A DNA stretch of 64,000 nucleotides from a virus, in IMG/VR virus record IMGVR_UViG_3300048091_000427; one strand, written 5' to 3'. The stretch's first letter is position 1; each line of letters starts with the position of its first letter. Below are positions 3,205-54,237 of this stretch, in pieces. The notes beneath the pieces were generated by a model that searched no databases, was not told where the DNA came from, and saw only the letters and a program-made list of their open reading frames with translations. Made by a program: the position numbers and the translations under genes.

Positions 3205-5007
3205 GTGGCCTCCACCCTCGAAAAGCTGATCAAAGAACAAGTCGACGCCGACAACTTGCCAATGGTCGAGGCTCTGTTGAACTCGATTGTTCCGTTATTA
3301 CCTGAGAAAGAACGGGAAGTACTGGCTGACAGCCAGATGTACGAGGTTTTACTGGAAAGGAAGCCAGCCATCGTCAATCTGTTTTCGCAGCATTTCTCCA
3401 TCACCGATGCAATGGCCGCTGGTTATCTTCTGGATCGCAGTCTCTTCGTGCACAAAGATCGTGACGCATTGCCAATCGCGCTGGACGCGTTGCAAGAAAG
3501 CTTTGGCAATGTGCTGATATCAGCCATTTACCGGGGTGACCTGGCGATGGTGCGAACGCTTCAGGCGAAGTGGCCTGATCGACACATCGAATTGAGTTAC
3601 GACGGTACGAAAGGACACTTGCTGGCAGATGGTCAAAAGGTAAAGCATGAATTTGAAGCCATGCAAAACATGGATGGCGTCCCGGTGTTCCGCGAGCTTA
3701 TGGAAACCTTGCTAAAGATCGTGCAGATAAACGGGATAGATCAGGAGCAATTTCTTTACGACTTTTGTGACAGCGTCAATTTGGATGAGGCCGATGATCT
3801 GACTGAAATTGTTCCTTTTGCCGGTCAGTATCCGTCGATAGCCGCAGGCCAGGTCGAACATCCAGAGCTTATGCTGGCGTTCGCTGAAGCCCAGGAAACA
3901 GTGTTGTTGAAGGCTATGCACAGCCGATTGTTTTGCTGGGTCAAGACCGAGGACGTCGCCGACTTGCCGTTAGGCGTGGCGTATTCCCCAGTGATGAAGG
4001 CCTCGTGCTACGGAGAGCCCTTCGACATCGGGATTCTCTCGACCCCTGCTGCATTTACCCAGCCCTTGCAGTTCACGAAAACGAATGAAGACCGAAAACC
4101 CGAGCCGATCATGGATCAATGGCCTGATATCGAGTTGGGCATCGAGGTAGGTGGGTTGGAACCGTCCAATGCGGTGATTTATGACGACAAGATCCGCCAA
4201 AAAACCCTGCTCGACAGCCATTTCCTAGGCTTGAATCACCGATCAGGGTACACCCTGATGTCGATGGACATCGAGGTATTGAAATCACTTGATATCGGCA
4301 AGGTAGATCCAGAAGCGCTTGTTAAGGCGCGGGAATACGCACAAGGCTTTTACTGCTCGCAACTTCTAAGCCCAAGGTTCCACTCGGGTATGAGCAAAAC
4401 CGGTCGGTTCCGGGAGGGCTGCAAGGAAATGAAGCTGTACAACTTCTTCGATTTTTCGGCTAAGAGTCAGGACAAAGACGCCATTTTTGATAGCTTCAGT
4501 CCGGTTTTTTGGTACAACATTTTCCATGGCTTTTCGGCAGGACTGGGTGCGGAAGGGATTCTAGAGGCGCGTGATCGTTTTGCTTGGACAAACGCGGACA
4601 CTCGTAGAGGCTTCAGCCTCGATGCAGGGAAGATTCACAAACTGTTCGATGCTGGTTATGTGTTTGCGGAATACGGTCGTGGAGTAAAGACGTCATACGG
4701 GGTGTCGTCACCAAGTGAGTGCGAAGTGCTAAACCAGGAAGTCATCTCAATGGGTGGCTGGCCAAGCACCGATCCTCGACCCAATGATGTTGAAGAAGCT
4801 GTAAAAATGGGTATCCGCAAGAAGGATCGTTTGTATGAGATCTACATTCGTACTCATGGGCCAGAGGCGGCTATCGAAGCTAGCAAAACCAGGCCTCAGT
4901 ATGAGTACATCCTGAAGATTTTCACCCAGGATGAAATAAGGCCATACGCCCACAAGCTCCCGATGAAGCAACTCGGCGACGTTTTCTCGCGAGATATGGG
5001 TCTTTAA
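3205..5007 (+). CDS. hypothetical protein (600 aa) ending FSRDMGL; member of C-terminal FSxDLGL family
   Basis: GTG start with GAAGGAAAA RBS; no known domain recognised; extreme C-terminus ...DVFSRDMGL. Confidence 0.55.
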   Translation: MASTLEKLIKEQVDADNLPMVEALLNSIVPLLPEKEREVLADSQMYEVLLERKPAIVNLFSQHFSITDAMAAGYLLDRSLFVHKDRDALPIALDALQESFGNVLISAIYRGDLAMVRTLQAKWPDRHIELSYDGTKGHLLADGQKVKHEFEAMQNMDGVPVFRELMETLLKIVQINGIDQEQFLYDFCDSVNLDEADDLTEIVPFAGQYPSIAAGQVEHPELMLAFAEAQETVLLKAMHSRLFCWVKTEDVADLPLGVAYSPVMKASCYGEPFDIGILSTPAAFTQPLQFTKTNEDRKPEPIMDQWPDIELGIEVGGLEPSNAVIYDDKIRQKTLLDSHFLGLNHRSGYTLMSMDIEVLKSLDIGKVDPEALVKAREYAQGFYCSQLLSPRFHSGMSKTGRFREGCKEMKLYNFFDFSAKSQDKDAIFDSFSPVFWYNIFHGFSAGLGAEGILEARDRFAWTNADTRRGFSLDAGKIHKLFDAGYVFAEYGRGVKTSYGVSSPSECEVLNQEVISMGGWPSTDPRPNDVEEAVKMGIRKKDRLYEIYIRTHGPEAAIEASKTRPQYEYILKIFTQDEIRPYAHKLPMKQLGDVFSRDMGL

Positions 5008-6041
5008 CTGCGCTCGGCACGGGCGTAGAGCGTGCGTACCCATTCCAGTGCTTGCTCCGAGGTCTGTTCGTCGATCAGCGAGTACTGGAAGCCTTTTTTA
5101 CTGCTGCGGGTGCGGACGTGCTCATCGATCTCCAGTTCAGCTGGGGTGCAATAGAATTCCACCATCAGTTTTGGATACTGGGTTTCGGTCACATACAGCC
5201 GGCCCAGAGGGCCGAATAAGCCGAACTCATACGCCTGGCCTTGCTCCTCGACGATTAGGTCACTAGCGATCTCATAGAGCCCATCCACGAACATTAGAAA
5301 CCGCGCCTGGCTTTCCTGTGGAGCTCTTGCGAGGGCCTGGGAGATGCTCAGCGGGTGTCTTCGAGTGGCAGGAGGTCTCTTGGCCTGCAAATAGCCTGGG
5401 CGGCGCTTGGAGGCGACTGTGGAGAGCGACAAAAGGCCGGACTCGAAGAATTTGTAGGTGACCAAGTCGAGGTTGGCCTCGAATTGGTGGATGGCTTCAA
5501 GGTCATACCGGGCGAAGTCCTTGGCGATGCAGATCACCCTGGCCCCTGACCAATCGATCTGCCCGGCCACCGCCGCCCCCAAACGATTCTGCACGAGCAG
5601 TTGAAACTCAGCTTGATGGGTGAGTAGCCAGTTCAGATAGAACAAACCTTGGTTGATGACGGTGCTTTCAACATCTCGTTTGAACTCAACGATGATCGGA
5701 GCGTTGTACTGATCCAGCCCCAAGGTATCGATGCGCCCACGATGTACTTCACCGGTGCTGTACTCACTGGCCAGGAACCGAACCTTGAGCAATGGCTCGA
5801 GGTGGTGTTCAAGCACCTGCTGCAGATCACGCTCGAGGGCGATCTGGGAAGGGTGGAGTTCGTGGCATTCGTTATCACGCAGGGAAAACAGCTGGAAAGA
5901 AGTCACAGGCCACCGGTAATGCTTGTTTGGCAATTGATGGTCATTATTCACTTTTTTGACCGTCAGGAAAACAAAAACCCCAAGCAGGCTTGGGGTTGGG
6001 TGGTCTGTCAGTGGAAACTGTCGTGCTTGGCAAGATCCCAC
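5004..6041 (-). CDS. PD-(D/E)xK nuclease-fold protein (putative)
   Basis: Motif GRIDTLGLD ... IIVEFKRD (D...ExK) consistent with restriction-endonuclease-like fold; start uncertain (overlaps upstream gene). Confidence 0.4.
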   Translation of the reverse strand: MGSCQARQFPLTDHPTPSLLGVFVFLTVKKVNNDHQLPNKHYRWPVTSFQLFSLRDNECHELHPSQIALERDLQQVLEHHLEPLLKVRFLASEYSTGEVHRGRIDTLGLDQYNAPIIVEFKRDVESTVINQGLFYLNWLLTHQAEFQLLVQNRLGAAVAGQIDWSGARVICIAKDFARYDLEAIHQFEANLDLVTYKFFESGLLSLSTVASKRRPGYLQAKRPPATRRHPLSISQALARAPQESQARFLMFVDGLYEIASDLIVEEQGQAYEFGLFGPLGRLYVTETQYPKLMVEFYCTPAELEIDEHVRTRSSKKGFQYSLIDEQTSEQALEWVRTLYARAERS

Positions 6042-7603: not shown

Positions 7604-7612
7604 GCTACTTAC

Positions 7613-9085
7613 TCACAAGCCAAGGTCGATAGAGAAAACGACACCCCTGAGTATCAGGGGCAATGTAGCGATTTGTGCCGGCGACAAGCTGCAGATAGAG
7701 GCCAGTCGCTCGGTGGGTTTTTTATTGATCAAGGTCGGGAGAATCCGGTCGATCAGCGTCGGGTATTGCGCAAGAGCGGCTTTTGCCCGGTCAGCGTTGG
7801 CATTGCCACCGTCGTCGAGGAAAGTCATAACGTTTTTGAAACAGTTGTCTTCACTCATCAAGTCGATGGTCACAGTGCCCTGCATCGCATGATGATAGAA
7901 ATCTATGCTGGCCAGTTCATTGAGCACGGAGGAGGCTGCCTTGTAATCAGGAACTTTCTTTGACCATACGGTTGTGCGGCTACCGAAACGTTGCACATTC
8001 AGCGGATCGAGCAGCGCTGGGTAGGCATTGATCAGCGTTTTGGTGACGGCTTTCTGTACATCGATACCAAAGCGTCGACTTACAAAACCATCGAACAGCC
8101 CAGCAAAGCTGCTCTCTTCCTTGTTCCAGTGCGCCTGGTACTCAAGGATCGGAGGGCCCAGGAGCTCTTTGGCCTCAAAGTGGAACCCCGGCCAGCAGTC
8201 AGGGTAATGCACCAGCACATGGCCGATGAAGTTTCGAATTTGTAGGGCGTGGATCTTGGCGTCAAGGTTCGGGAACAAGACGGGGAGGATCACGGCCAGG
8301 CGCCGCTCCAGTTCGAGGGTGGTCTGCACCACATCACCACCCGCCAGTGTCCAGAAATAGCTGGCATTGACCAGGGACATTACGAAGTCGTGCTCGAAGT
8401 CGCGAGAAACACTTCGATCACGACTCTTGATCAGCGCTTTGAAAGTCATCACGGTTTTGGCGCCGGCTACCAGTGTGGCCGCCGACGGTAGTCCATTCAG
8501 AGCGAATGTCTCAGCACATTCCCTATCCAGCCCTTCACGGGTAGTGGACAACAGATCCCCCAGGCAATCATGAACTCCCTGCGTGTAGGTCAGGCTGCGA
8601 AGAACATGGAGGTGTCTCTCATGCTCGAAACTGAATTTGGTGGAGTCGGGGAGGTTGTCCAGTCGCTTGACGGCGTGACGATGCAACTCAATTGCGCACG
8701 GCTGGAGGATACTGACGATCTTGCACCCAGGATGCAGCATGAGTACGTGAGCCAAATCCATTTCCAGGATTGTCGGCAACAACTGTACGGTGCCTTCGAG
8801 ATAGTGACGGTCATGGACGTGCGCGGACGGATCAAAGCCTGACCTCACCAAGGCCAGGGCAAACAGGCCAAAGCCGAGCCGAGGCTGTAGTTTTTCGTGG
8901 AAGTCGGCTAGCGCCTGCTGAAGTTTGGAATACTTATTGAACGGGGCAGCATTGATGCGTCGATAGTCTTCGAGCGAAAAGTCGTATTTCTCGAAAAACT
9001 TCGACACGTGTTTGGCCAACCCCATGTCAAAAGACTTGGGGTCAAGGTGTTCAAACGGCCAATAAACAGGGTAGTTGGAACCCAT
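7613..9085 (-). CDS. hypothetical protein ending FSIDLGL; FSxDLGL family
   Basis: Start set at ATG 9085 (AGGAGG 9 nt upstream); C-terminus ...RGVVFSIDLGL. Confidence 0.5.
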   Translation of the reverse strand: MGSNYPVYWPFEHLDPKSFDMGLAKHVSKFFEKYDFSLEDYRRINAAPFNKYSKLQQALADFHEKLQPRLGFGLFALALVRSGFDPSAHVHDRHYLEGTVQLLPTILEMDLAHVLMLHPGCKIVSILQPCAIELHRHAVKRLDNLPDSTKFSFEHERHLHVLRSLTYTQGVHDCLGDLLSTTREGLDRECAETFALNGLPSAATLVAGAKTVMTFKALIKSRDRSVSRDFEHDFVMSLVNASYFWTLAGGDVVQTTLELERRLAVILPVLFPNLDAKIHALQIRNFIGHVLVHYPDCWPGFHFEAKELLGPPILEYQAHWNKEESSFAGLFDGFVSRRFGIDVQKAVTKTLINAYPALLDPLNVQRFGSRTTVWSKKVPDYKAASSVLNELASIDFYHHAMQGTVTIDLMSEDNCFKNVMTFLDDGGNANADRAKAALAQYPTLIDRILPTLINKKPTERLASICSLSPAQIATLPLILRGVVFSIDLGL

Positions 9086-10926: not shown

Positions 10927-10932
10927 GACACC

Positions 10933-14394: not shown

Positions 14395-16419
14395 TCAGGC
14401 GTGTACGACCTGGCCCTCGATCACGGTTGGGCCGTAACCCGCCAGCTGCGCGGGATTAGCCTGGAAGAACTCATCAATGATGACCAGCAATTGAGCATGG
14501 GTCAGCACATAGTCATTGATCAGACGATCCGCGATGATCCACGTCAGATCTTGGTAGCTTTCCAGAAGCTGGATGGCGTGAGAGTACAGGTACGCCGACT
14601 GGTCGTTCATATCCGCCAGGCGGGAAGCCCCTGCATCAACACCAATTTGCTGAAGCTTTTTGTAGCTCAGTTTTGCGCCATTCTGGAACCCGATTTCGTT
14701 GTACATCAGGTCGAGCAAATCAGTGGCACGGGAGATATCGTCACGACCACCGGATGTCACGTTGCCAGAACCGAACATAATTTCTTCGTTGGCCATTCCG
14801 CCATACAGTTCGATGATGGCTTCCTTGTAGTCGTTGAAGCTGCTCAGCGGAACGTCTTTCTGTTTGTTGAGCACAAACCCGAGCGCACCGATCTTCGACA
14901 CGGCCTCGGTGGAAATCTTCAGCGTATCAAGGGTGTCGGGCAGGGTCAGCAGGTTACCTTGGCTTTTGATCAGGGCGTGGTGCATCTTGATGATGAAGTG
15001 CCCGGCCTCGTGGACAGCGATAGTGCGCCGAGCCACATCCATACCCTTGGTAGTAGCCCTGTCAGTCAAGCCGACCGCTTCACGCTCATAGGCACGAATC
15101 AATACGTCCTGGGAGATCTGCACCTTTTCCTGGATCGCGATGAGGCTTGCACGGGTCATCAGGGTGTTGAGGTCAGCCGGGCTCATCCCGCCACTGATCA
15201 TGGCCAGCTGGTTGAGGTTGACGTCATGAGAGATGTTCTTGCTCTCGCATTTGCCGATCAGGCGGTGCAGAAGTTCGAGCCTTTCCTCTTCATTAGGTAG
15301 GCGGAAGTTGATCTTGTGCTGAAAGCGCCGGAGCATCGCTTTGTCCATTGGCGTCTTGGTTTCGTCGAAGTTACTGGCGAGAATCCAGATCACCTTGCCT
15401 GACTTTTTGGAGTTCACGCCATCGGTCATGCTCAGTAGGGCATTGCTGGTATCGTTTTCGGATCTGTGCCTATTCCCCTTGTCACGGGCGCCCAGCAAGC
15501 CTTCGGCCTCGTCCAGGAAAATGATTGCACCGTTCTTATGCTTCTTCGCGCTGTTCAGCAGGCGGCGTAGTGTCTTCGGGCCACCACCCACATACGACGT
15601 CTCAAGTGAGGCGCCAGAAGCGTAATAAAGCGGCATATCAAGGCGTTTGGCGATGCAGCGAACGAGCACCGTCTTACCGCAGCCAGGTGGGCCGGTGAAC
15701 AGCATGTTGTGTGGCTTGACGATCCCGTGCTCTGCAAAGAGCTTCTTGTCGAGGATCATCTGCTCGACCTGCAGAACCTCGGATTTAATGTCGGCCAGGC
15801 CTACAAGGTCATCAAGATCATCCTGGATGTCCTTGGGTTCGGTCATCTCTTGTTTGTTACTGGTCATGGAGCCAGTCAGCCAGACAAACGCACCCACGAA
15901 CAGAAGTACCGAGAGGATGGTACCGAGCAGTGTGTAAGCGTACTTGCCGGCACTCTTGGCCGTTTGTGTGGCTATCAAGGCGTTTGGATCGTGACTCACG
16001 CCCAGCATCTTGCCGACACCGGACAATGAGTTGGTTACCCGGTAGTCAACTTCAGGGTGATCCTTCAGAAACTGGGACAGCACCAGCTCTTCGTACTGGT
16101 TGAAACCATCATAGTTAAGGGAAGGGTAGAGCAGGATCAGCGGGTTTGAGGATCGGCGCATCAAGATCTGACGCTCGCCAAACACTTCACCACTGACAAG
16201 GATGATCTGCTGTACGTCTTTGAGTTTATCCCCCTTCATCTGGAAGATTTCATCAGACGTGTGTACTTCGTACGCGTTGGTAGGCTTTTCGGCAGCACCG
16301 TCCGCAGGAGTTTCGACCACTGGCGCAGGGTAAAAAGTATCGACTGCCACGTAAGCCGACATCCCCAGGACGATGCCGAGGGTGACGCCAAGGAGCAGTT
16401 TTTTCATCAACGGTGACAT
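14395..16419 (-). CDS. FtsH-family membrane AAA+ zinc metalloprotease (accessory paralogue)
   Basis: Two TM helices flanking periplasmic domain, Walker A GPPGCGKT, Walker B IIFLDEAE, SRH region, HEAGH zinc motif. Confidence 0.8.
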   Translation of the reverse strand: MSPLMKKLLLGVTLGIVLGMSAYVAVDTFYPAPVVETPADGAAEKPTNAYEVHTSDEIFQMKGDKLKDVQQIILVSGEVFGERQILMRRSSNPLILLYPSLNYDGFNQYEELVLSQFLKDHPEVDYRVTNSLSGVGKMLGVSHDPNALIATQTAKSAGKYAYTLLGTILSVLLFVGAFVWLTGSMTSNKQEMTEPKDIQDDLDDLVGLADIKSEVLQVEQMILDKKLFAEHGIVKPHNMLFTGPPGCGKTVLVRCIAKRLDMPLYYASGASLETSYVGGGPKTLRRLLNSAKKHKNGAIIFLDEAEGLLGARDKGNRHRSENDTSNALLSMTDGVNSKKSGKVIWILASNFDETKTPMDKAMLRRFQHKINFRLPNEEERLELLHRLIGKCESKNISHDVNLNQLAMISGGMSPADLNTLMTRASLIAIQEKVQISQDVLIRAYEREAVGLTDRATTKGMDVARRTIAVHEAGHFIIKMHHALIKSQGNLLTLPDTLDTLKISTEAVSKIGALGFVLNKQKDVPLSSFNDYKEAIIELYGGMANEEIMFGSGNVTSGGRDDISRATDLLDLMYNEIGFQNGAKLSYKKLQQIGVDAGASRLADMNDQSAYLYSHAIQLLESYQDLTWIIADRLINDYVLTHAQLLVIIDEFFQANPAQLAGYGPTVIEGQVVHA

Positions 16420-19406: not shown

Positions 19407-20555
19407 ATGTCTTGGAACATTACCCACGATCCCCTTTATCATGTCGAACTGGATTGCCAGTTTACGGAAAGGATGAAAGGCCTTCGGTTTCGACGTGAGC
19501 AGCTTGAAATGCTCACGCGCAGCACTGATATCGAGAGTGGGTTTGCCAAGCAGGCACCCATCTGGCTGTCAGAAGGAAAGTCACTCGACGTGGTAGAGGC
19601 GTTCCTCCAGGGCCTGGCAGAAGCGGGGCGGAATCTGGATCATCACGCCTGTTTCAGCACCTGGGCCGAACTGGTACATGCCGATCCGATGCGATTTTTC
19701 GAGAACCTGAATTTTGCCAATTATCCGTTGGACTTGGCCAAAACGCCGAACCCCTTGTTCAGCAAGGACGACAGCTTTGCAACACTGAACGCTCTTCTAG
19801 CCCTTGATCCTGTTCGTTGCCTGCAGATTCCAGGCTTGTTGTCTGGCGCCTGGAAAGCTGGCGCGATGAACCCAGAAACCCGCGACCTGGCTTTGATTGG
19901 CATTTTTTCAGCCTTCACCCGTTACACTCGCTATCAAGAGAAGCACCGACATCGGGACAACTATGAAATCCCGTTGGAAACACATGCCAAGAATGTGTTC
20001 AGTCAACTTGGAAAAGTGATTGATCTGAATTTCAGCGGTTTCCTTGAGCAGTTGCCGGACAGTCCGCAGGAAATGACTCCTGTCTTACATCGCTACTACG
20101 GTAAGTTAGCTGGGGAGATGAAGAATGCTGAACATCTGCTGCCACCCCTGCCTATACCGCGTCAAATGGACTCTAACGGTCACCCGTATGCCTTGCTATG
20201 CCTAGGACTTAAAGCCAAGCTGGTGAGTACGCCTGGGCATATCAAATATCTTGACCGCGTGCGAAGCAAAAATGAGAAAAGGCGATTCTCACCCAATTGG
20301 GAGCAGGACGTCTTCTCGCGGGTAATTCAGAACGATTACAGCGATTTGAAGCAGATACGCGCTGCCGTGCGCTCGTACTCGCTGGAAGCACATCATATTG
20401 AAATGCTTGAAGAGCGCGGTCTGGTTAAACAATACCTAAAAGGCCTGCCGGCAGAAGAACGTGAATTCCTTATTGCCAAGGATGTCGTACCGGTTCGATT
20501 AATTGTCAAAGTAAAGGAACTGGGCAATAAATTCGGTCAAGACTTGGGTTTGTAG
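19407..20555 (+). CDS. hypothetical protein ending GQDLGL; FSxDLGL family
   Basis: 382-aa ORF; C-terminus ...NKFGQDLGL. Confidence 0.5.
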   Translation: MSWNITHDPLYHVELDCQFTERMKGLRFRREQLEMLTRSTDIESGFAKQAPIWLSEGKSLDVVEAFLQGLAEAGRNLDHHACFSTWAELVHADPMRFFENLNFANYPLDLAKTPNPLFSKDDSFATLNALLALDPVRCLQIPGLLSGAWKAGAMNPETRDLALIGIFSAFTRYTRYQEKHRHRDNYEIPLETHAKNVFSQLGKVIDLNFSGFLEQLPDSPQEMTPVLHRYYGKLAGEMKNAEHLLPPLPIPRQMDSNGHPYALLCLGLKAKLVSTPGHIKYLDRVRSKNEKRRFSPNWEQDVFSRVIQNDYSDLKQIRAAVRSYSLEAHHIEMLEERGLVKQYLKGLPAEEREFLIAKDVVPVRLIVKVKELGNKFGQDLGL

Positions 20556-20613: not shown

Positions 20614-21348
20614 ATGCTCATCGACCCAAAACCTCTGTTGGCGTTCAGTGATTTGGATAAGCGCGAGCAATCAGTGTTCATGCATCGGTTTATTTCAACT
20701 CTGACCGCTGAGCATGCCTACCAGGCGGTGCTGTTGACCTGCGCTCAAAACGGCGCCTGGGCCTTCATGAGCCGGTTTCTGAAGTTACCGCATGCTCGTG
20801 ATGGCTTGTGGGAGATCATTGACACCCTGCAAAGCTACGCCTACAACGCGCAAACCATTCCCCAGTTGATGGCAGCTTTGCCAAAAAAGTTTCGGCACAA
20901 TGAAGGCATGCGGGCTCTGGTGTACCCTTTTGAAATTAAAAACTGGGAACTGGCCGAGGTAGCTTTTGAGCATGGTGCGGCGCCGGGTGAACAACTGTTT
21001 TGCAAGGTCTGCCACGACTATACGTTTGAGCCGAATGACTTCTCCAAGCAGTTCATTTCTCGTGCGATCAAGACGGGTAAGGTTAACTGGAAGTCTATGT
21101 TGGCTTTCAATGACTATGCCGACGGTTTTGATCTAATCAGCAGGGCAGCCCAGAACGACACCCGAAGCCTGTACGTCGTGGCGTCTGCTGTCATGTCCAA
21201 TGGGGAAAAGCGCCGGCTGCTTCATGCTGTGACGGAAAAGGCCACCTTGAATCATTACTTGCAACACATGGAGTTTCCAGAGAACTGGCGCACTTATTTG
21301 AATTTGCCTATGAGGGCACTGATCTTTTCAGAAGATCTAGGGGTTTGA
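20614..21348 (+). CDS. hypothetical protein ending FSEDLGV; FSxDLGL family
   Basis: 244-aa ORF; C-terminus ...LIFSEDLGV. Confidence 0.5.
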   Translation: MLIDPKPLLAFSDLDKREQSVFMHRFISTLTAEHAYQAVLLTCAQNGAWAFMSRFLKLPHARDGLWEIIDTLQSYAYNAQTIPQLMAALPKKFRHNEGMRALVYPFEIKNWELAEVAFEHGAAPGEQLFCKVCHDYTFEPNDFSKQFISRAIKTGKVNWKSMLAFNDYADGFDLISRAAQNDTRSLYVVASAVMSNGEKRRLLHAVTEKATLNHYLQHMEFPENWRTYLNLPMRALIFSEDLGV

Positions 21349-26848: not shown

Positions 26849-26861
26849 TCAGGAGCTTCGC

Positions 26862-40292: not shown

Positions 40293-41141
40293 TTACGGAG
40301 CGTAAGGCAGGGCGCGTTTGTGAGCGGTTCTGGCGTATGCGTCGATGATCACCTTGGCGACTTCATCAGAGACAGGCCTGCCGAGCAGGAAGTTGTCGAT
40401 GTCATCGTAGGTGCAGCCGTAAGCCAATTCATCTGGCTTTCCTGGGGCGAGATCTTCAAGGTCGGCGGTCGGGGTCTTCAGCACCAGGTCAGTTGGTGCA
40501 CCCAGCGCCAGCGCGATCTGACGAACCTGACCTTTGACCAAACCTGACAGTGGAGTCAGGTCTGCCGCGCCGTCGCCGAACTTGGTAAAGAAACCAAATA
40601 CAGCCTCGCATGCATGATCCGTGCCAACAACCAGACATCCTTTGTCGCCAGCAATTGCGTATTGGGCGATCATGCGGGCACGTGCTTTGACGTTACCTTT
40701 CACGAAGTCGATCTGGTGCTCGTCCCCGGCTTGTTGGCCGCTCAGGGCACCCATCATGGCATCGACGGACTGGCCGATATCGACGGTCAGGATTTCGTCC
40801 GGTTTGATGAAGCGCAGGGCCGCTTGAGCATCTTCTTCGTCGCGTTGAACGTAGTAGGGCAGGCGTACGGCGTAGAACTTGGCGTCGTAGCCTTCGGCAC
40901 GCAGCTGTTCAACCGCTTCCTGGCACATCTTGCCTGCCGTGGTGGAGTCAACGCCGCCGCTGATACCCAGTACCAGGCCTTTGGTGTTACTGGCCCGTAC
41001 GTAGTCTTTCAGGAAGGCCACGCGGGTTTCGAGTTCTGCTACCGCGTCGCTGGCTCGATGAACCCACTGTTTGACGTTGAGTTCGCCGGCAATGCGAGCG
41101 GCGATGTCGGTTGTGATGTCGGTTTTCAGGATGTCGTTCAT
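40293..41141 (-). CDS. nadE: NH3-dependent NAD+ synthetase
   Basis: SGGVDS PP-loop, full-length similarity pattern to NadE. Confidence 0.85.
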   Translation of the reverse strand: MNDILKTDITTDIAARIAGELNVKQWVHRASDAVAELETRVAFLKDYVRASNTKGLVLGISGGVDSTTAGKMCQEAVEQLRAEGYDAKFYAVRLPYYVQRDEEDAQAALRFIKPDEILTVDIGQSVDAMMGALSGQQAGDEHQIDFVKGNVKARARMIAQYAIAGDKGCLVVGTDHACEAVFGFFTKFGDGAADLTPLSGLVKGQVRQIALALGAPTDLVLKTPTADLEDLAPGKPDELAYGCTYDDIDNFLLGRPVSDEVAKVIIDAYARTAHKRALPYAP

Positions 41142-42418: not shown

Positions 42419-42419
42419 C

Positions 42420-43073
42420 TCAATTCCCCTCTTTAGCGAATTTTGTCAATTCATCTTGATTGTGAGCGATCACCGCACCGGCAGCGACCATTTCGAGCAA
42501 TGCTTCTAGTGCGCCTTCGGCACTGATTGCTCGGCAGGCCGGCAAGTGGAGCACGACGATGAAGTCTGCGGCCAGCAGTTGCAGGACGGTGGTTTTGACG
42601 CAGTAGTCCAGAGCCAGACCGCCCACCAGGACTTTTTCGATGCCATTGCAGCGCAGGACTTCGATGGCGCCGGTGGTCAGCTTGTTGTGCAGATCGTGGT
42701 AGCAGGCGCCGTAGGGGTGCAGGTCGGTCGATACACCCTTGTAGACCATGTAGCCGTAGTCGGTCTCGGCGGGCAGCGTGTCGAGGAGCTCGTAGCCCAA
42801 GGTACCGGGTACGCAGTGCACAGGCCAGAACAGGTCAGCATTTGGCAGGCCGGTAGGCTGGGCGATCTTTTCGCCGGTCTCGTCGATCCATGGGGCTTGC
42901 GGAGAGTGAGCGTCTTTGCTGCCGACGCGAAAACCAGCCAGGGAAGCCATGAAGTTCAGCTCAGGGGTAATCTGGTCACCGCCAACGACAGGCAGTTCAT
43001 TTGGGCAGATCGGGGTGAACCCCTTTTGGGCGTCTACGTCAAAGCTTGCGATTTTGTTCTTGGGGAAGCTCAT
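42420..43073 (-). CDS. pncA: nicotinamidase / isochorismatase-family hydrolase
   Basis: Isochorismatase fold with D...K...C triad region; position in pncA-pncB-nadE operon. Confidence 0.7.
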   Translation of the reverse strand: MSFPKNKIASFDVDAQKGFTPICPNELPVVGGDQITPELNFMASLAGFRVGSKDAHSPQAPWIDETGEKIAQPTGLPNADLFWPVHCVPGTLGYELLDTLPAETDYGYMVYKGVSTDLHPYGACYHDLHNKLTTGAIEVLRCNGIEKVLVGGLALDYCVKTTVLQLLAADFIVVLHLPACRAISAEGALEALLEMVAAGAVIAHNQDELTKFAKEGN

Positions 43074-43309
43074 GTGAGGTGCTCCTTGTTTGCCGATGAT
43101 TAGATATTACGCCACACGTCATAAGTCGTCAACAACCCGAAATGAAAATTTCTAAAAATCTTCCATCAATCGAAAAACAGTCGCTCATTTGCCTATAAAT
43201 AGTGGTACTGGCTGAAATTATTGCTGAGCCATAATTTCATATAATTGACCTGTTGCGATTGACTAGATACGACGTGACACGTATTATGTTGAAAAAGAAG
43301 GAGCAAAAC

Positions 43310-43882
43310 ATGAGCAAGATCCCATTGGCCGTATACGGCGGCGCATTCAACCCACCTCACCCAGGGCACGCCCAAGTGATGAAGGGTCTGCTTGAGAAGG
43401 CTGAAAAAGTGCTGGTGGTACCCTCTTATGCTCACCCGTTTGGCAAGCACATGGTGGCTTTCGAAACGCGGGTAGGGTGGCTGACCAAGATCGTGACCCA
43501 GCTGCAAGATGAGCGCATTCAGGTAGATGCCTGTGAGGAAGATCTAGCCGCCATCAAGACCCCGATCTTCAGCATCGATCTGTTGCGGTTCATCGCCGAC
43601 CGGTTCGGCCTCGATAGCAAGTCGGTGGCGTTGGTGATGGGCGCGGACAACGCAAAGGTTTTCCCAACCTTCTTTGGCTACCAGGCCATCGTGGATGAGT
43701 TCTCGGTGATCACCATGCCTGAGGTGTACCAGATCCACAGCACGATGCTGCGCAGTGCCCTGGCTGATACGGGTGAAATTCCGCAGGACTGGGTTGCCCC
43801 CGGCCTGACGCAACATGATTACCAGGTGTACAGCCAAGACCCGGCTGGCCAAGCCAACTTGAATTCACGCAAAATCGCCTGA
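43310..43882 (+). CDS. nicotinamide/nicotinate-nucleotide adenylyltransferase-like cytidylyltransferase
   Basis: GGAFNPPHPGH (H/T)xGH nucleotidyltransferase motif. Confidence 0.65.
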   Translation: MSKIPLAVYGGAFNPPHPGHAQVMKGLLEKAEKVLVVPSYAHPFGKHMVAFETRVGWLTKIVTQLQDERIQVDACEEDLAAIKTPIFSIDLLRFIADRFGLDSKSVALVMGADNAKVFPTFFGYQAIVDEFSVITMPEVYQIHSTMLRSALADTGEIPQDWVAPGLTQHDYQVYSQDPAGQANLNSRKIA

Positions 43883-43914
43883 ATCACCAATTTATCTTTC
43901 AAGGGGACTCCAGG

Positions 43915-44625
43915 ATGACCACTCAACAAAGACCTTACCTCCACTCCGTCGACATCGGTGTGCTGCGCTTCAACCAGGCGAGTGAGGTGATCGAGGTCAT
44001 GCTGCAGAAGCGCCTCGACCCTGATCAACCTTACTTTGGTCAGTGGGCGCTGCCCGGCATCGTGATCAATGGTGACATGATCGACCAGGACATCAACGCC
44101 GCACTGGCCCGCCTACTGGCGTCGCCCAAGGTCGGCATCCCGGTAAAGTACACCGAACAAGTGGGAACCGAAGGCAACGGCGTGCGTGATCCGCGCTGCT
44201 GGTCGAGCACCACCGTCTACCTTGGTCTCGTGGATGACGCCATTGCCCTGGAAGGGGACAAGCAGTGGGTGCCGCTGGCCGGCGTTCTGTCCTCCGAGAT
44301 CCTGCTCGCATTTGACCACAACCTCTTGGCTGGCATGATTTATGAGCGGCTTGCGTCGAAGTGCCTCTACAGCAGCCTGGGCCTGCAACTGCTGCCACAG
44401 GAATTTACCATCACCGGCGCGATCAGCGTGTTCGCCTCGATCCTCAATTATCCGGTGGCCCGGACGAGCATGGTGCAACGCATCAACAAGATGACGGAAG
44501 CCGGCCTGGTGCTGAAGACTGACCGCAAAAACCAACCGCTGATGGGCCGGGCCCAAACCATCTACGAAAACCTTCAACCAGAAAAAGTCTTCTTTTTCGA
44601 CCGTACTCTCTCTGCCTCTGAATAA
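43915..44625 (+). CDS. nrtR: NrtR-like Nudix-related transcriptional regulator
   Basis: Degenerate Nudix N-terminal domain plus C-terminal wHTH; genomic context next to NAD salvage genes. Confidence 0.6.
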   Translation: MTTQQRPYLHSVDIGVLRFNQASEVIEVMLQKRLDPDQPYFGQWALPGIVINGDMIDQDINAALARLLASPKVGIPVKYTEQVGTEGNGVRDPRCWSSTTVYLGLVDDAIALEGDKQWVPLAGVLSSEILLAFDHNLLAGMIYERLASKCLYSSLGLQLLPQEFTITGAISVFASILNYPVARTSMVQRINKMTEAGLVLKTDRKNQPLMGRAQTIYENLQPEKVFFFDRTLSASE

Positions 44626-44635
44626 GGAAATCGAC

Positions 44636-45127
44636 ATGAACGCACCCGTCAAACCGTTTGAACTCCTGCATGAAACCCCGTATTTCAACGTGATCAAGCG
44701 TGGGAAGTATTACCTCGTGAGTGAAGAGTACGAGGTTAACGCTGCGGTGATCCTCGCCAGAACCACTGATGGCAAGTACCTGATGGTCAACCACTACCGT
44801 GGCGCTATTGATCAGGATTCCCTGGAACTGCCGCGTGGTGGCCGCAAGCCGAACGAAACTCTGCTGGAAACTGCCCAGCGTGAGTTGAAGGAGGAGACTG
44901 GTTACGTGTCTGAGGCCTGGTCGTTCCTCGGGAAGATCCACACCAACACCTCGATCATCGTCAGTGCGGTCGAAATCTACCTGGCGCTCGACGCGGTACA
45001 AGTGACCACCGTCACTGACGGAGAAACCAAAGGTAACCTGCTGTACACCGAGGACGAATTTAACGTCCTGATTCGCACCGGCAAGATCACTGACGCGCAC
45101 ACCCTGTCGGCCTGGGCAATGCGATAA
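44636..45127 (+). CDS. Nudix hydrolase (ADP-ribose pyrophosphatase-like)
   Basis: Nudix box GGRKPNETLLETAQRELKEETGY. Confidence 0.7.
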   Translation: MNAPVKPFELLHETPYFNVIKRGKYYLVSEEYEVNAAVILARTTDGKYLMVNHYRGAIDQDSLELPRGGRKPNETLLETAQRELKEETGYVSEAWSFLGKIHTNTSIIVSAVEIYLALDAVQVTTVTDGETKGNLLYTEDEFNVLIRTGKITDAHTLSAWAMR

Positions 45128-45608: not shown

Positions 45609-46064
45609 CTACAATCCAAGGTCGTGGCTGAAGACGTCTTTTCGAAACTCCTCGAACTGCGGTGATTGTAGGAGGAGGTTCTTGATGGCAACGCTGGGCT
45701 GGGTGAAGCCAACTATCAGGAACTCAGCCTTCGCGGCCCTGCGCAGTTCGTCTGGATAAGCCACCGTTGCCCCGTTCAGCGCATCCTCAACCAGTTTGAT
45801 TGCTCGAGCGTTAAAGTCATCGGCCAGTGGCGTTGTTGGGTCTTTTGCACTTCTCGCTAAGGCTTTACCTATTCCGCCCCTGACATTGGCGAAGAGCTGA
45901 TAGCGCGTCATGTCAGCCATCCCGAGGTTAAACACTGCGGGATCGTATAAAGGGCCCTGGCCTGTGCCATGCAGGGCCCGTTCAACAAGCGCGTGCCACT
46001 TGTTCGCAGGCCCCTGGCCTGTGCCGTGAAGAATCTTTTCAATAAACTCGTACGACTTGTTCAA
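45609..46064 (-). CDS. hypothetical protein ending FSHDLGL with internal HGTGQGP repeat; FSxDLGL family
   Basis: 151-aa ORF; two copies of ..HGTGQGP..; C-terminus DVFSHDLGL. Confidence 0.5.
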   Translation of the reverse strand: MNKSYEFIEKILHGTGQGPANKWHALVERALHGTGQGPLYDPAVFNLGMADMTRYQLFANVRGGIGKALARSAKDPTTPLADDFNARAIKLVEDALNGATVAYPDELRRAAKAEFLIVGFTQPSVAIKNLLLQSPQFEEFRKDVFSHDLGL

Positions 46065-47750: not shown

Positions 47751-48149
47751 TTAGATAGTTTCAGTCTGAGCTCCTACAATCCACGGAATAATCATCAAGG
47801 CTGTCGCCAATATCATCAACCCCAGATCCCTCCAGCCGGCGTCCGGGTCGTTTCTTGTCCTGAACATACCTACAAGTGCCAAAAAGAAGATTACCATCCC
47901 CTGGAAGCCACAAAGTAAGTTTGCGAAGGCATGCGACTGTATCTGAAAGCACCATGCAAGCAGCGGTGATACGGTCAGCGGCACAGATAATAAGAGAGCG
48001 AGCGTGCTCAACACCAGGTCAAGCGTAAGGTTTTGCCTCCAACCTGCTTTGAGTGTCTTTAGGTTAAAGAGTGTGCAAAACAAGCCTGTGATGAAGAATG
48101 TGATCGAAAATCCTAAGGAAGGCAGAATTGGATAATAGGAAAAGTACAT
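47751..48149 (-). CDS. small polytopic membrane protein
   Basis: Four hydrophobic helices. Confidence 0.4.
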   Translation of the reverse strand: MYFSYYPILPSLGFSITFFITGLFCTLFNLKTLKAGWRQNLTLDLVLSTLALLLSVPLTVSPLLAWCFQIQSHAFANLLCGFQGMVIFFLALVGMFRTRNDPDAGWRDLGLMILATALMIIPWIVGAQTETI

Positions 48150-48223
48150 AGTGGTCTCGTCCAGGGTCTTTGGCGGGAATACAGGCCTGCAGAGTTAGTC
48201 CTGCAGACCCCGGTGTTCGATTT

Positions 48224-48859
48224 TTATGATGCGGTTGAAGGCTCTGCCGCTTCAGTGGAATGCGCCCACGTTGTGAACGGATGCTTGGCCAGGTACGAGT
48301 TGTAGTAACGCTTGTCGCCGGTCACTTCTTCGCCCAGCCAGACGGGACGTTCAAACTCTTCATCTTCGCTGGACAGCTCGATCTCTGCCAGGACGAGGCC
48401 GGCATTCGCGCCACCAAACACATCAACCTCAAAGGTGTGGCCTACACGTATAAGGTGGCGGAGTTTTTCGATCAAACCAGGCAGGCAGAGAGGCATGAGC
48501 ATCTTTGCCTCCGCGCCGGCGATGTTTTTTTCCCATTCAAATCGCGACATGCCAGAGGCGCTACCAATCCCTTTGATGGTTAATACGCCATTGTCGTTGT
48601 GCAGCCTTACCCGAACGGTTCGGCCAGGATCGTCGTTCAGGTATCCCTGGGCGATAGTGTCGACCTTGCTGGCGCTGGCAAGGAGCTCCTTCAGGTACTC
48701 TGGCTTAACCAGAAATTTTCGTTCGATTTCGACTTTTGGCTTCTCGTGTCGACGGAGAAGGACAGCAAAAAGCACCCAAGCGGCAAATACAATGGTCAGC
48801 CATATGAGCAGAGTATTCAGTGCGGAGTGGTACGTGTCATACAGATGAAGAAACATGTG
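48224..48859 (-). CDS. CYTH-domain (triphosphate tunnel) protein with N-terminal TM anchor
   Basis: EIERKFLV signature of CYTH/CyaB-ThTPase family. Confidence 0.55.
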   Translation of the reverse strand, partial: HMFLHLYDTYHSALNTLLIWLTIVFAAWVLFAVLLRRHEKPKVEIERKFLVKPEYLKELLASASKVDTIAQGYLNDDPGRTVRVRLHNDNGVLTIKGIGSASGMSRFEWEKNIAGAEAKMLMPLCLPGLIEKLRHLIRVGHTFEVDVFGGANAGLVLAEIELSSEDEEFERPVWLGEEVTGDKRYYNSYLAKHPFTTWAHSTEAAEPSTAS

Positions 48860-50360: not shown

Positions 50361-50387
50361 TCGGGTGAAGAGAAAAAACAAGGCGGC

Positions 50388-51269: not shown

Positions 51270-52715
51270 TCAAAGGCCAAGGTCTTTACTGAAAGAGTCC
51301 GCCCGGAATCTCATCGACCGGGTGAGTTTGCACTTATTCAGAAAGGCGTCTTTAAGATCCAAATCAAGTGCCTTCCTAAATCCCTCACCATCGACTGATT
51401 TGAACAATATGTTGATGGTCTTGTCGTGAGCTCCTGCAATTTCGCCCGGCTTGTCCTTGGTAACCAGTTGTTTTGCGTGCTCCAGCAAAATTTCACGGGC
51501 GCCTTCAAAACTATTGGCCGCAAGTTTAATTGACGCGTCGAAATTCAGTGAAGCTACGCATTTTTTAAGCTCTGTGTTGAAGCCATCATGATCCGTAATG
51601 GTTGGGGTGATTCCCCGCTGGTAGTATCTGATGAGGTTCATCATGTGTTTGGGGTCACTGGTCAGTATGTCTACCCCTGCGGTCAGAGCCACCTCAAACA
51701 AACGCTCCTTCAAGTGGGGTTCATCTTTTCGTGGACTCGATTGAGCGATGGCAGTAAGCAAGCGTAGTGGGGTGAAGTCCGTACCACGTCCCATGATGAT
51801 TTCTGTCGGTGTTCTTTCGAGTGGCGTCATCTCATGCAAGCTCGAGCAAATTGCACGCAGGTTGGTCGTATCTCGAAGGTACGTGATCTCTTCTGGTACT
51901 CCATTTTTGAGCGCCCGTAAAAATCGGCAAAAGACCAGGGCCGGATCAAAATCACGAACGCCTCTTTTTGCTTCGGCGTTCATGGCGTAGTCGAGGATCG
52001 GATTATGGAGCCAGGGCTTTTTCTCGAGACGTGAGATAATCGCGAGACACTTGGTGATTGACTGATCGTAGGGCAATTCAGAGTCCACATCGCGTGAAAG
52101 CGAAACGCCGCCACTTTCAAGAAAGTGATCCATGGCTTCCACCATTTTATCCTTGTTGCTATGGCCCACGAACTGGTTCAAGTACATGTCCTTGAACATC
52201 ATTGCTACGTACTGGGGTTCGGAGATATAGCGGTGACCGCCCATGCTCCTGAGAACATTCATCGTTTCGACAAAATCCTCTTTACTGACCAGGGGCTCCT
52301 TATCGGATTTTGGGAATTTCCGACCAAATCCGAGAATGGCCGATCCCAATGGCTTGAGGGGATTTGGAAAGCTTACCTTACTGTAAAGGATGGTCTGCGG
52401 GCTGGAATCGAACAGGGCAGGGTCGTCAAGGTAGCAATCGTAGCGTTCGAAAATCGCCAGGGGCACGCCATGATCGCGGAAAATGGCTAAGGCCTCATGA
52501 TTACCCTCCATGGCGCATTCGCAGATGTGCTGTTCCACGTCCCTGCGCAAGGATTGTGGGGTCATGTATCTCGGACTTGCACGGTCAGGGGACATAGGCG
52601 CCGGCAAGTAGCCTGCAGCTTCTGGCATCTTCTCCAGGTGCTCGCAGTAGATCCTGGCGTTGCTCACGGCTCTCTCGGACGCTGTAAGCCATGTACGGCG
52701 GTGATCGAATGTCAT
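51270..52715 (-). CDS. hypothetical protein (481 aa) ending SFSKDLGL; FSxDLGL family, tandem paralogue B
   Basis: Shares EKMPEAxGYLPAP, HEALxIxRxHGVxLxIFERYD, KxGVRDFDPxxVF, TNLRAI, C-terminal RADSFSKDLGL with upstream paralogue. Confidence 0.55.
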   Translation of the reverse strand: MTFDHRRTWLTASERAVSNARIYCEHLEKMPEAAGYLPAPMSPDRASPRYMTPQSLRRDVEQHICECAMEGNHEALAIFRDHGVPLAIFERYDCYLDDPALFDSSPQTILYSKVSFPNPLKPLGSAILGFGRKFPKSDKEPLVSKEDFVETMNVLRSMGGHRYISEPQYVAMMFKDMYLNQFVGHSNKDKMVEAMDHFLESGGVSLSRDVDSELPYDQSITKCLAIISRLEKKPWLHNPILDYAMNAEAKRGVRDFDPALVFCRFLRALKNGVPEEITYLRDTTNLRAICSSLHEMTPLERTPTEIIMGRGTDFTPLRLLTAIAQSSPRKDEPHLKERLFEVALTAGVDILTSDPKHMMNLIRYYQRGITPTITDHDGFNTELKKCVASLNFDASIKLAANSFEGAREILLEHAKQLVTKDKPGEIAGAHDKTINILFKSVDGEGFRKALDLDLKDAFLNKCKLTRSMRFRADSFSKDLGL

Positions 52716-52791
52716 GGAAGCTCTCGGGTAGATTTGAATGGTTGATCAGTCGGGCGATGCAGGGGAGGGCTCAGTACTTGAGCCCTGTGCC

Positions 52792-54237
52792 TCAAAGGCC
52801 GAGGTCTTTTGAAAAGGACTCAGCGCGAAATTGTAGCGACTGGGTGGTCTTACCTTTGTAGGCAAAGGCGTCACCCATGCTCAGGCCAAGCTTTATCCGG
52901 TAGCTTTCGCTGGTAGGGTCGGTAAACAGCCGCTGGATGGTCGCTTCATCGGCGCCGGCGATGGCATTCACCTTGTCGTCGGTAAGCATCTGCTTTATCC
53001 GTGCCAAGGCAGCTGGATTGGCCTTGAGCACATGGCCTTTGCACAGCTTCATCGCGGCAGTGAGGTTGAGCACCTCAGTGTGCTTCCCGAGTTCATCATT
53101 GAACTCTTCCAACTTATCCAGATCCAGGCAGCCTTTACGTTCGTACTTGGAGATCAAGGTGAAGAGATGGCCTTTGTCATTGATCAACGTGTCCATGCCC
53201 GCTGACATGCAAGCGTTGAACAACGCTGGGATGCGCGCAGGCTCTACTTTGGCAGTCTTTGATTCATCTATCGCACGCAGCAACATCAGCGGAGTGAAGC
53301 GCTTCTGGTTGCCGAGGATGATCGCATTCGGATCTTTGTTGATCGGGTAGAGTTCGTGCATGCGCTGGAAGATGGCCCGAAGGTTGGTGTTCTCCCCCAG
53401 CCAACTCACCACCTTGTCTTGCCCGCGACTCAAGGCATTCATAAACGATTGAAAGACGATGACCGGGTCAAAATCACGCACGCCGGCTTTCACTTCGCTC
53501 TCTAGCGCGAAAGGCAGCATCACGTTCTGGGTTTCTGGGTTGAAATCCATGTTCCGGATCTTTTTGATGATTTTCAGCACCGAGTCATCGAAGCTTAGAT
53601 CGGAGTCATAGTCCCGGCACAGGGAGATACCACCCTCGGCGAGGAATTTATCGCTGGCGTAGCTCAAGCGACGGCTGTTATTGAGGTTCATGAACAGGAA
53701 GCCCATGTCACGAAACATTTTCGAGACGTACTGGGGATCGTTCTTGTAGTGATTTCCACCCATGATCATGAGAACCGACAGGGTCTCGTCGAAGTCGGCC
53801 TCGGTGATGCAGGCAGCTTCATAGAGATCGCTTCTCGAATACCCGGATATTAACGTGCCGACGGCTTCCAGAGGATTCGGAAAAACTGTACCGCGATTCA
53901 AGATATCGCGAGCGTGGGGTGAGTACAGTTCCTGGTTTTCCAAGAAACTGTCATAGCGCTCGAAGATCACGAGGCCTACCCCGTGCTCACGATAGATCTT
54001 CAATGCTTCATGGTTGACGGTTTCAGCGCACCGGGCGATGTTGACTTCAATTGCCCGGCGCAGCGTGGATGGCGTCCAATTATCTTTGCTCTCGCCGCTA
54101 CCATTACTGGGTGCGGGCAGGTAACCGATAGCTTCCGGCATTTTCTCTAGGGCACGGCAGAAACGAGTCGCTAACGTGACGCCCCATGCAACCTGGTCGG
54201 CTCTGCGGCGTTGGTAAGTTGCGTCTAGATCGCTCAT
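52792..54237 (-). CDS. hypothetical protein (481 aa) ending SFSKDLGL; tandem paralogue A
   Basis: See paralogue B; identical length, identical last 8 residues. Confidence 0.55.
   Translation of the reverse strand: MSDLDATYQRRRADQVAWGVTLATRFCRALEKMPEAIGYLPAPSNGSGESKDNWTPSTLRRAIEVNIARCAETVNHEALKIYREHGVGLVIFERYDSFLENQELYSPHARDILNRGTVFPNPLEAVGTLISGYSRSDLYEAACITEADFDETLSVLMIMGGNHYKNDPQYVSKMFRDMGFLFMNLNNSRRLSYASDKFLAEGGISLCRDYDSDLSFDDSVLKIIKKIRNMDFNPETQNVMLPFALESEVKAGVRDFDPVIVFQSFMNALSRGQDKVVSWLGENTNLRAIFQRMHELYPINKDPNAIILGNQKRFTPLMLLRAIDESKTAKVEPARIPALFNACMSAGMDTLINDKGHLFTLISKYERKGCLDLDKLEEFNDELGKHTEVLNLTAAMKLCKGHVLKANPAALARIKQMLTDDKVNAIAGADEATIQRLFTDPTSESYRIKLGLSMGDAFAYKGKTTQSLQFRAESFSKDLGL

Follow-up and report, generated by a model that had tools for sequence, protein, structure and literature searches.

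Seven proteins encoded in the 64,000-nucleotide stretch of DNA analysed here (IMG/VR virus record IMGVR_UViG_3300048091_000427; the window, meaning the whole of this stretch) end in a common heptapeptide, F-[SG]-x-D-[LM]-G-[LV]-COOH, and proteins with this tail number ~100 per megaplasmid in the family of Pseudomonas plasmids to which the window belongs. An earlier reading made from the sequence alone (the sequence-only reading) had taken the seven for an undescribed effector-type repertoire defined by its tail and not by its body. Our analysis bears this out in that the tail is a strongly selected protein-level module set on unrelated bodies, and the repertoire size of seven was an underestimate. 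As to function, we tentatively read the tail, with a probability of roughly 40%, as a lineage-specific translocation signal for the Dot/Icm-like type IVB secretion system of these plasmids.

The window has a GC content of ~53%. Its sole match in a megablast comparison with plasmids was pPL1 of Pseudomonas silesiensis G3 (1,168,067 bp; 78.5% identity), and the entire window is collinear with pPL1 at 969-1034 kb. Searches with a tail protein (tblastn) tied it to pMPPla107, pBASL58 and the 910-kb plasmid of Pseudomonas sp. FeN3W as well. The collinearity and these ties place the window in the pMPPla107 family of ~1-Mb Pseudomonas megaplasmids. On pMPPla107, 776 of the 1,080 genes are hypothetical, and a complete Dot/Icm-like type IV system is encoded whose role in protein export has explicitly been called unknown (PMC3136466, PMC6482414). 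A phage origin was rejected, since megablast against phage records and PHROGs searches with the seven proteins were both blank, and so was an identity as a defence system, PADLOC being blank for the tail proteins of the window.

The terminal heptapeptide and its carriers

Translation of the window reproduced exactly the seven open reading frames (ORFs) and the final residues given in the sequence-only reading (Table 1). The regular expression F[SG].D[LM]G[LV] matched the six-frame translation seven times, in all seven cases with a stop as the next codon, where the amino-acid composition of the window predicts 3.4e-5 C-terminal matches for 68 genes and 0.06 for the six frames as a whole (~128,000 codons). 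For pPL1, the complete plasmid sequence was surveyed for stop-to-stop ORFs of at least 60 codons that end in [DE][LMIV]G[LVIM]. There were 92, with a start codon leaving at least 60 aa in 91 of them, and another ~14 ORFs end in DLNL or DLSL within the pattern F-x-x-D-L-[NS]-L. The strict heptapeptide was found at 56 C-termini and at no internal position in the 1,178 called pPL1 proteins, against 0.0013 and 0.36 expected, respectively. The proteome scan that had been proposed thus puts the motif far above its composition expectation, and the terminal counts in both the window and pPL1 led us to reject chance as the origin of the tail.

Phe occupies position -7 in 96 of 98 aligned tails, though this position was absent from the collecting regular expression, and is followed by Ser, Gly or Ala at -6, Asp at -4, Leu at -3, Gly at -2 and Leu, Met, Ile or Val at -1. 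Conservation extends upstream of the heptapeptide, a point that the sequence-only reading had wanted examined, through Gly or Ala at -10 and Leu, Arg or Gln at -11 as far as Leu at -14 (56 of 98). Between the window proteins and their pPL1 orthologues, 43 of 49 residues in the last seven positions are identical, versus 34-85% in the bodies. Every synonymous alternative for Ser, Leu and Gly and all three stop codons are in use in the tails, indicating that selection acts on the peptide and not on a DNA site; the same variation ruled out that the shared end arises from a repeat or site in the DNA, such as a REP, att or shufflon-like element. No k-mer was enriched upstream of the tail genes after multiple-testing correction, that is, no shared promoter motif was detected there.

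The bodies of the window proteins had been described as unrelated except for one tandem pair, and this is correct as far as profile methods can see, given HHalign probabilities of at most 8.5% among the six trimmed window families. On the wider scale, the 98 bodies formed 45 BLAST clusters, or 37 after merging with hidden Markov models (HMMs; hmmsearch). A Pfam scan of these 98 proteins (41.7 k residues) gave three marginal single-member matches (E 3e-4 to 7e-3). Neither the tail nor the bodies, those of the seven window proteins included, are covered by a model in Pfam, NCBIfam, PADLOC or PHROGs, and a full-text literature search with the motif and pMPPla107 found no description of the tail. 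The carriers have a median length of 439 aa (range 113-633 aa) and a median isoelectric point (pI) of 5.6, are rich in Leu and Phe, have a normal cysteine content, and account for ~8% of genes (about one in twelve proteins).

A signal-like N-terminus was seen in 2 of 89 tail proteins and a transmembrane-like segment in 9%, compared with 25% of other proteins. The seven window proteins have no signal-like N-terminus, in agreement with the earlier claim, and its dismissal of sortase- and exosortase-type tags also stands: the features of sortase, exosortase and rhombosortase substrates are lacking, as the stop codon follows the motif in every case, with no hydrophobic helix or basic tail after it, and signal-like N-termini are rare. 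The suggestion that small acidic, chaperone- or immunity-like proteins accompany the tail genes fared less well. Such neighbours had no family matches, and 40% of the non-tail megaplasmid proteins also have a pI below 6. Moreover, many tail genes of pPL1 lie in head-to-tail arrays of abutting paralogues without small genes between them, which argues both against toxin-immunity pairs and against chaperone or immunity neighbours.

The tail is uniform within a plasmid and drifts between plasmids. ORFs ending in Φ-x-x-DLGL (Φ, a hydrophobic residue) numbered 11 in the 44 kb of pMPPla107 and nine in the 42 kb of pBASL58 that were examined, and they correspond to coding sequences annotated as 'hypothetical protein', without exception on pMPPla107 and with the exception of one weak case on pBASL58. 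The form on pPL1 and in the window is F-[SG]-x-DLGL. On the marine FeN3W plasmid (CP136011.1; piece L056, 5954-40900) the tail has drifted to Φ-x-x-[DE]-[LFM]-[GEDQ]-[LI]-COOH, the homologous genes ending in STDFEL, KSDLDI, AEELGI, AGDFEL, AEEMGL and GAELQL, so that the core common to the plasmids is Φ(-7)…[D/E](-4)-Φ(-3)-x-Φ(-1)-COOH. This is the pattern expected if each plasmid encodes its own receptor, and the natural FeN3W variants could be used to find a receptor that co-varies with the tail.

Beyond these plasmids, one genome per species from 185,579 bacterial and archaeal species was searched for FS[KQ]D[LF]GL-stop by means of a 35-bit DNA pattern. Six of the 24 matches lie on the 1.06-Mb P. 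serbica plasmid, where they are the ends of ORFs of 227-572 codons, and the remaining 18 are in short non-coding frames. Within reach of the DNA pattern, the tail is confined to the pMPPla107 plasmid family. The pattern was also matched in Nostoc/Fortiea genomes by a short conserved non-coding Nostocales repeat, in which the frame reads QKFSKLSKRLFQN…IFSQDFGL and is interrupted by stops; this was rejected as a false positive unrelated to the tail family. A word-indexed search of large protein databases with the 40-aa tail alignment returned nothing, and exhaustive HMMER searches with a profile of the seven tails returned the window's own families and two junk repeat translations only. A motif this short cannot reach significance among 1.8 billion sequences, and the profile searches are therefore silent on wider distribution.

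Type IVB secretion genes and possible roles of the tail

The sequence-only reading had advised looking for a co-occurring secretion apparatus, and one is present: pPL1 encodes a Dot/Icm-like type IVB secretion system (T4BSS), as is also reported in the literature on the plasmid family (PMC3136466). Its recognisable parts comprise DotA/TraY (E 7e-108), DotG/TraO, IcmL/DotI, DotD and a DotB-like ATPase, together with an IncI-type thin pilus. The type IV coupling protein (pPL1 1106851-1109415) is TrbC/DotL-like, with 854 aa, an ATPase core that extends to about residue 590 and a long C-terminal extension of ~260 residues; a DotM_C-domain protein (1109570-1110934; E 2e-37) is encoded directly after it, and IcmJ/DotN (47903-48607) was matched at E 8e-22 with 77.8 bits, under the curated NCBIfam cut-off of 100 bits. 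Both pMPPla107 and pBASL58 were typed as MPF_I by MOB-suite. Effectors of Legionella are recruited by the DotL-DotM-DotN platform, in which their C-terminal signals are bound by DotM (PMC5802825), and protein injection into bacteria by a T4BSS is already on record for Pseudomonas (PMC9519443). A full-length SecA paralogue with all four SecA Pfam domains is also encoded on pPL1 (NZ_CP143488.1; 1099975-1102512, + strand), ~4 kb away from the genes for the coupling protein and DotM, with ParM-like, RecJ and RecD-like genes nearby.

In the reading that we favour, the tail L-x-x-[LRQ]-[GA]-x-x-F-[SG]-x-D-L-G-L-COOH would be a recognition peptide that needs a free C-terminus and that marks ~100 unrelated, cytosolic, acidic orphan proteins per megaplasmid as clients of one plasmid-encoded receptor. 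This receptor would most likely be the coupling complex of the MPF_I type IVB system, formed by the DotL/TrbC-like ATPase with DotM and DotN. The tail proteins would then be the long-sought protein substrates of the T4BSS and would leave the cell, possibly for a recipient bacterium during mating or for a eukaryotic cell (plant or protozoan). A translocation signal is the best-supported function because a large, orphan, paralogue-rich, signal-peptide-less and C-terminally labelled repertoire exists beside a conserved export machine without known cargo. In addition, Leu, Met or Ile stands at -3 in all 98 tails, a count partly dictated by the collecting regular expression, and a hydrophobic residue at -3 was reportedly found by Nagai and colleagues in 2005 to be critical in the Legionella RalF signal.

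A good deal weighs against a translocation signal of this kind. The signals known from Dot/Icm effectors are degenerate, with many Glu and small polar residues (the E-block), and the tail is unlike them: K, L, S, Q, R and G prevail from -17 to -9 in the 98 tails, with no Glu block, and the pre-tail region is basic or amphipathic and not acidic. To our knowledge, a strict terminal heptapeptide is without precedent among substrates of type IV secretion systems (T4SS). The coupling complex is a putative receptor, and homologues of DotL and DotM (TrbC/TrbA) also belong to IncI-type DNA-transfer systems, so their presence is no proof of effector export. IcmS and IcmW had no match in ten small ORFs near the T4SS genes of pPL1, nor were they among the best 25 families listed in a bulk scan of 100 pPL1 ORFs. 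The window itself has no T4SS gene, the apparatus being seen on the collinear relative pPL1, and the tail genes are not clustered with the T4SS genes. None of the proteins with a recognisable conjugation domain bears the tail, the relaxase and primase not having been located, and the 98 tail proteins gave no Pfam match to a eukaryote-like or toxin domain and showed no immunity partners. Finally, all tail-bearing replicons belong to one plasmid lineage, which reduces the co-occurrence with a T4BSS to a single data point.

A tail far sharper than any T4SS signal might instead act inside the cell. In one version, which we regard as doubtful, it is a docking tail or degron by which ~100 proteins that are never exported bind a single cytoplasmic hub that controls their stability, activity or localisation; the megaplasmid FtsH paralogue, host ClpXP or Lon, a PDZ-type protease, a chaperone or a scaffold are candidate partners. 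The end L-G-L/M/I/V-COOH, preceded by an invariant Asp, has the form of a class II PDZ-like ligand (Φ-x-Φ-COOH) at the strict C-terminus, features typical of degrons and docking peptides such as ssrA-LAA, and the plasmids carry proteostasis genes (the FtsH paralogue and tmRNA of the window, Table 1, and Hsp20 in its relatives). Uniformity within and drift between plasmids would also suit a plasmid-encoded adaptor. However, the tag of the plasmid tmRNA has the canonical end LAA and not DLGL, which means that the usual C-terminal degron pathway is served by another code, and we see no obvious rationale for degrading 8% of the plasmid's own gene products by a shared tag. A search that was not exhaustive found no receptor candidate with a PDZ or adaptor domain, and this version leaves the diverse, orphan and tandemly expanded bodies unexplained. 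Rather doubtful too, in our estimation, is an undescribed sorting system, in which a megaplasmid receptor, not necessarily the T4BSS, would read the carboxylate-anchored Φ-x-x-D-Φ-G-Φ and route the ~100 orphans to a common destination (a machine, a compartment, vesicles or another cell), with receptor and label co-evolving in each lineage.

It is unlikely that the carriers are one hyper-divergent paralogue superfamily whose C-terminal helix and tail are simply its most constrained structural or oligomerisation element, such as an amphipathic end that associates with membranes or a strand or helix exchanged between subunits, and not an address label. Tandem arrays of obvious paralogues, the many sizes at 380-480 and 520-630 aa, a hydrophobic periodicity that, together with weak conservation, reaches 15-30 residues back from the tail, the merging of some BLAST clusters under profiles and the confident helical C-terminal domain predicted for the 600-aa protein (below) are all consistent with common descent. 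Yet 37 superclusters remain after HMM merging, HHalign probabilities among the window families stay low (at most 8.5%), the spread in length is wide, and two of the proteins that carry the tail contain DUF4116 repeats and a WY-like unit, respectively. According to the AF2 model, the C-terminal residues are unstructured and not packed, and anchoring to the carboxylate (no internal occurrence versus 56 terminal ones) is hard to explain by fold constraints alone. Type I secretion, another function suggested for the tail, was weakened by our search: a scan for the signature of ATP-binding cassette (ABC) proteins (LSGGQ with Walker A; a signature scan, not an HMM search) found nothing credible in 1,178 pPL1 ORFs apart from one false positive, and Pfam found no RTX/GGxGxD or other type I substrate domain in the 98 tail proteins. 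A signal read by a host system of ABC transporter, membrane-fusion protein and TolC is in our view very unlikely, as a host-encoded exporter would not explain the plasmid-specific drift of the motif, and the normal cysteine content also speaks against it, even though the tail proteins are acidic and without Sec signals. The ends D-L-G-L and [DE]-Φ-x-Φ-COOH resemble the acidic-plus-hydrophobic terminal motif of type I substrates, and Ghigo and Wandersman reportedly found in 1994 that DVIV, the last four residues of Erwinia PrtG, is required for ABC-dependent secretion. We consider it highly improbable that the tail is a variant β-sliding-clamp-binding motif, in which case its carriers would be clients of the clamp and would manipulate host replication. 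Escherichia coli Pol IV binds the clamp through a C-terminal hexapeptide, QLVLGL-COOH, with the same terminal L-G-L; the Asp of the tail falls at the S/D position of the QL[SD]LF motif, and pMPPla107 reportedly alters quinolone and DNA-damage-related phenotypes. Nevertheless, the Gln and Leu that define positions 1 and 2 of the clamp motif (QL[SD]LF or QLxLxL) are replaced by S/G/A (-6) and a variable polar residue (-5), ~100 competing ligands per cell are implausible, tblastn found no dnaN on pPL1, and the bodies are without DNA-metabolism domains.

Tail proteins and other genes of the window

The tail proteins and the remaining features of the window are listed in Table 1. Structure prediction with AlphaFold2 (AF2) gave overall pLDDT (predicted local distance difference test) values of 44 and 49 for the two proteins tried, and with confidence this low the Foldseek comparison with PDB was uninformative (best E 2.5).

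Table 1. Proteins with the terminal heptapeptide, and other features, in the 64,000-nucleotide window.
Feature	Position	Strand	Product	C-terminal residues	Heptapeptide codons
Tail protein 1	3205..5007	+	600 aa	LPMKQLGDVFSRDMGL	4984-5004 (stop 5005-5007)
Tail protein 2	7613..9085	-	490 aa (543 aa from 9244)	LPLILRGVVFSIDLGL	7616-7636
Tail protein 3	19407..20555	+	382 aa	VKELGNKFGQDLGL	20532-20552
Tail protein 4	20614..21348	+	244 aa	LPMRALIFSEDLGV	21325-21345
Tail protein 5	45609..46064	-	151 aa	EEFRKDVFSHDLGL	45612-45632
Tail protein 6	51270..52715	-	481 aa	MRFRADSFSKDLGL	51273-51293
Tail protein 7	52792..54237	-	481 aa	LQFRAESFSKDLGL	52795-52815
Divergent, probable eighth member	62423..63715	-	430 aa, Pfam DUF4116 repeats	IKGVLFGQALNL (LFGQALNL)	
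ORF excluded from the members	58889-59497	-	202 aa	KAIDVFRGLGLL	
FtsH-like AAA/M41 protease paralogue	14395-16419	-			
tmRNA gene, complete	25906-26299	+	ARAGORN tag ANDNAFEGARLAA; Rfam RF00023, 175 bits		
XseA with probable XseB	26784-28422	+			
NAD-salvage cluster	40293-45127		NAPRTase, NUDIX and NrtR-like (latter two per matching metagenome contigs)		
RecA	59563-61077	-	504 aa from first start codon		

Tail protein 1 is a member of the largest body family (nine members counting pPL1 paralogues). Its orthologues P0002-P0006 share 53-81% identity overall, and their last 16 residues are almost invariant. Homologue searches with this 600-aa family found six orthologues only, even with a 15-sequence profile, and the protein had no match in Pfam, NCBIfam, PADLOC, PHROGs or PDB. 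AF2 modelled residues 520-590 as helix (pLDDT 74-86) and the final 7-9 residues as non-helical, at a pLDDT of ~42. The final residues, predicted to be unstructured after a confident helical region, should therefore be accessible, and a disordered end after a C-terminal helical region of ~70 residues is the look that would be expected of a free docking peptide. The pPL1 orthologue (1027720-1028115) is a C-terminal remnant of 131 aa (227 codons stop-to-stop) that has kept the tail, and it is probably a pseudogene or the product of a frameshift in pPL1.

For tail protein 2, the start at 9085 chosen in the sequence-only reading is favoured over that at 9244 because the pPL1 orthologue has 489 aa; the two share six of the last seven residues and 58% of the body. 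The protein had no family match and no PDB match. It also contains a tail-like internal PKSFDMGLAKH at 9017-9028 (- strand), ~20 residues from the N-terminus if translation starts at 9085. In tail protein 3, residues ~14-99 (WLSEGKSLDVVEAFLQGLAEAG…FSTW…) resemble one (L)WY unit of PSR2, an RxLR effector of Phytophthora sojae: phmmer against PDB matched 5zc3_B at E 1.6e-5, with several repeat units of the target matched. The unit is not reported by Pfam; it is kept in the pPL1 orthologue and is found nowhere else on pPL1. This resemblance may hint at a eukaryotic target but is suggestive only, and we know of no described bacterial (L)WY unit.

Tail protein 4 was modelled as all-helical by single-sequence AF2 with low confidence (pLDDT 49), and its pPL1 orthologue ends in IFADDLGV. 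A protein identical to tail protein 5 is present on metagenome contigs, and a global alignment of tail protein 5 with its counterpart at pPL1 987222-987758 gave 34% identity in the body and six of seven residues in the tail. Tail proteins 6 and 7 are tandem paralogues and the sole related pair among the window bodies; the last 16 residues of tail protein 6 are all identical to those of its pPL1 orthologue (16/16; body 72%), and tail protein 7 had no PDB match. The DUF4116 protein is a probable eighth member. It retains F at -7, G at -6, L at -3 and L at -1, with D replaced by A and G by N, and its pPL1 orthologue (969633-970910) ends in GALFGQALNL. The 202-aa ORF has F at -7 and a terminal L-G-L-L without the Asp, and it was excluded from the members.

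In the family scan, the genes of the window were orphans and housekeeping paralogues, the latter encoding RecA, the FtsH-like protease, XseA, NAPRTase, an SPFH protein and MscS. The Pfam RecA domains end near residue 349 of the RecA ORF. A plasmid-borne ssrA with a non-host tag is unusual, and it fits the translation and proteostasis paralogues of the plasmid.

Significance and comparison with known systems

A megaplasmid of the pMPPla107 type brings a Pseudomonas cell ~1,000 additional genes, some three quarters of which are 'hypothetical', and a question since 2011 has been whether the Dot/Icm-like system of these plasmids conjugates DNA only or exports proteins too. No effector could be named so far because nothing resembled Legionella effectors. 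The tail now gives a candidate list by regular expression, with ~100 proteins per plasmid and 7-8 in the window, in which D at -4, G at -2 and the terminal Φ are invariant. Should it prove a true T4BSS signal, the tail would give type IVB systems their first signal in the form of a sharply defined motif, as well as a tool for protein targeting, and it would point to a large effector arsenal, mobile by conjugation, in plant-associated and soil pseudomonads. Were it a degron or docking tail, the carriers would be a regulon-like set with one fate, which may help to explain the reported fitness costs of the plasmids.

The closest parallel is with the Dot/Icm effectors of Legionella and Coxiella. 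Here as there, cytosolic proteins without a Sec signal have the signal, putative in the present case, within their last ~20-30 residues, with a hydrophobic residue at -3, and the repertoire takes up ~8-10% of coding capacity and is mostly orphan, fast-diverging and paralogue-rich. Homologues of DotA, DotB, DotD, DotG, DotI, DotL, DotM and DotN are encoded on the same replicon of the nearest relative. Unlike the signals of Legionella, which are compositional, the tail is a near-invariant motif of 7-14 residues that must end the protein and has no E-block. The T4BSS in question, moreover, is borne by a conjugative megaplasmid of free-living or plant-associated Pseudomonas. The XVIPCD of type IVA effectors in Xanthomonas and Stenotrophomonas is likewise a conserved C-terminal element on unrelated bodies from which a repertoire can be listed by sequence. 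It differs in being a folded, VirD4-interacting domain of ~120 residues, and its effectors have toxin domains and adjacent immunity genes, neither of which was seen with the tail proteins.

With the protease and lipase substrates of type I secretion systems, the tail shares an Asp followed by hydrophobic residues at a free C-terminus, on acidic proteins without a signal peptide. It differs from them in that no ABC exporter was recognised on the plasmid by its signature, RTX repeats are absent, nothing corresponds to the invariant Gly at -2 and the Phe at -7, and the drift follows the plasmid and not the host. The Pol IV clamp peptide is similar in its C-terminally anchored L-G-L-COOH and dissimilar in its Gln-Leu, which the tail lacks, and the carriers suit clamp clients neither in number nor in kind. 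Encapsulin cargo peptides and class II PDZ ligands resemble the tail as short C-terminal peptides on unrelated cargo that are read by one receptor, and the encapsulin cargo of Thermotoga maritima ends in GGDLGIRKL, which contains D-L-G-I. Encapsulin peptides nonetheless are preceded by a flexible linker rich in Gly and Pro, do not have to end the protein and have a shell gene as companion, whereas the region before the tail is predicted to be helical and not a flexible linker. In general, a C-terminal label that defines a substrate repertoire is known from XVIPCD, from the C-terminal domain of type IX secretion and from encapsulin peptides; a terminal heptapeptide in this role on a T4BSS-bearing megaplasmid would be new.

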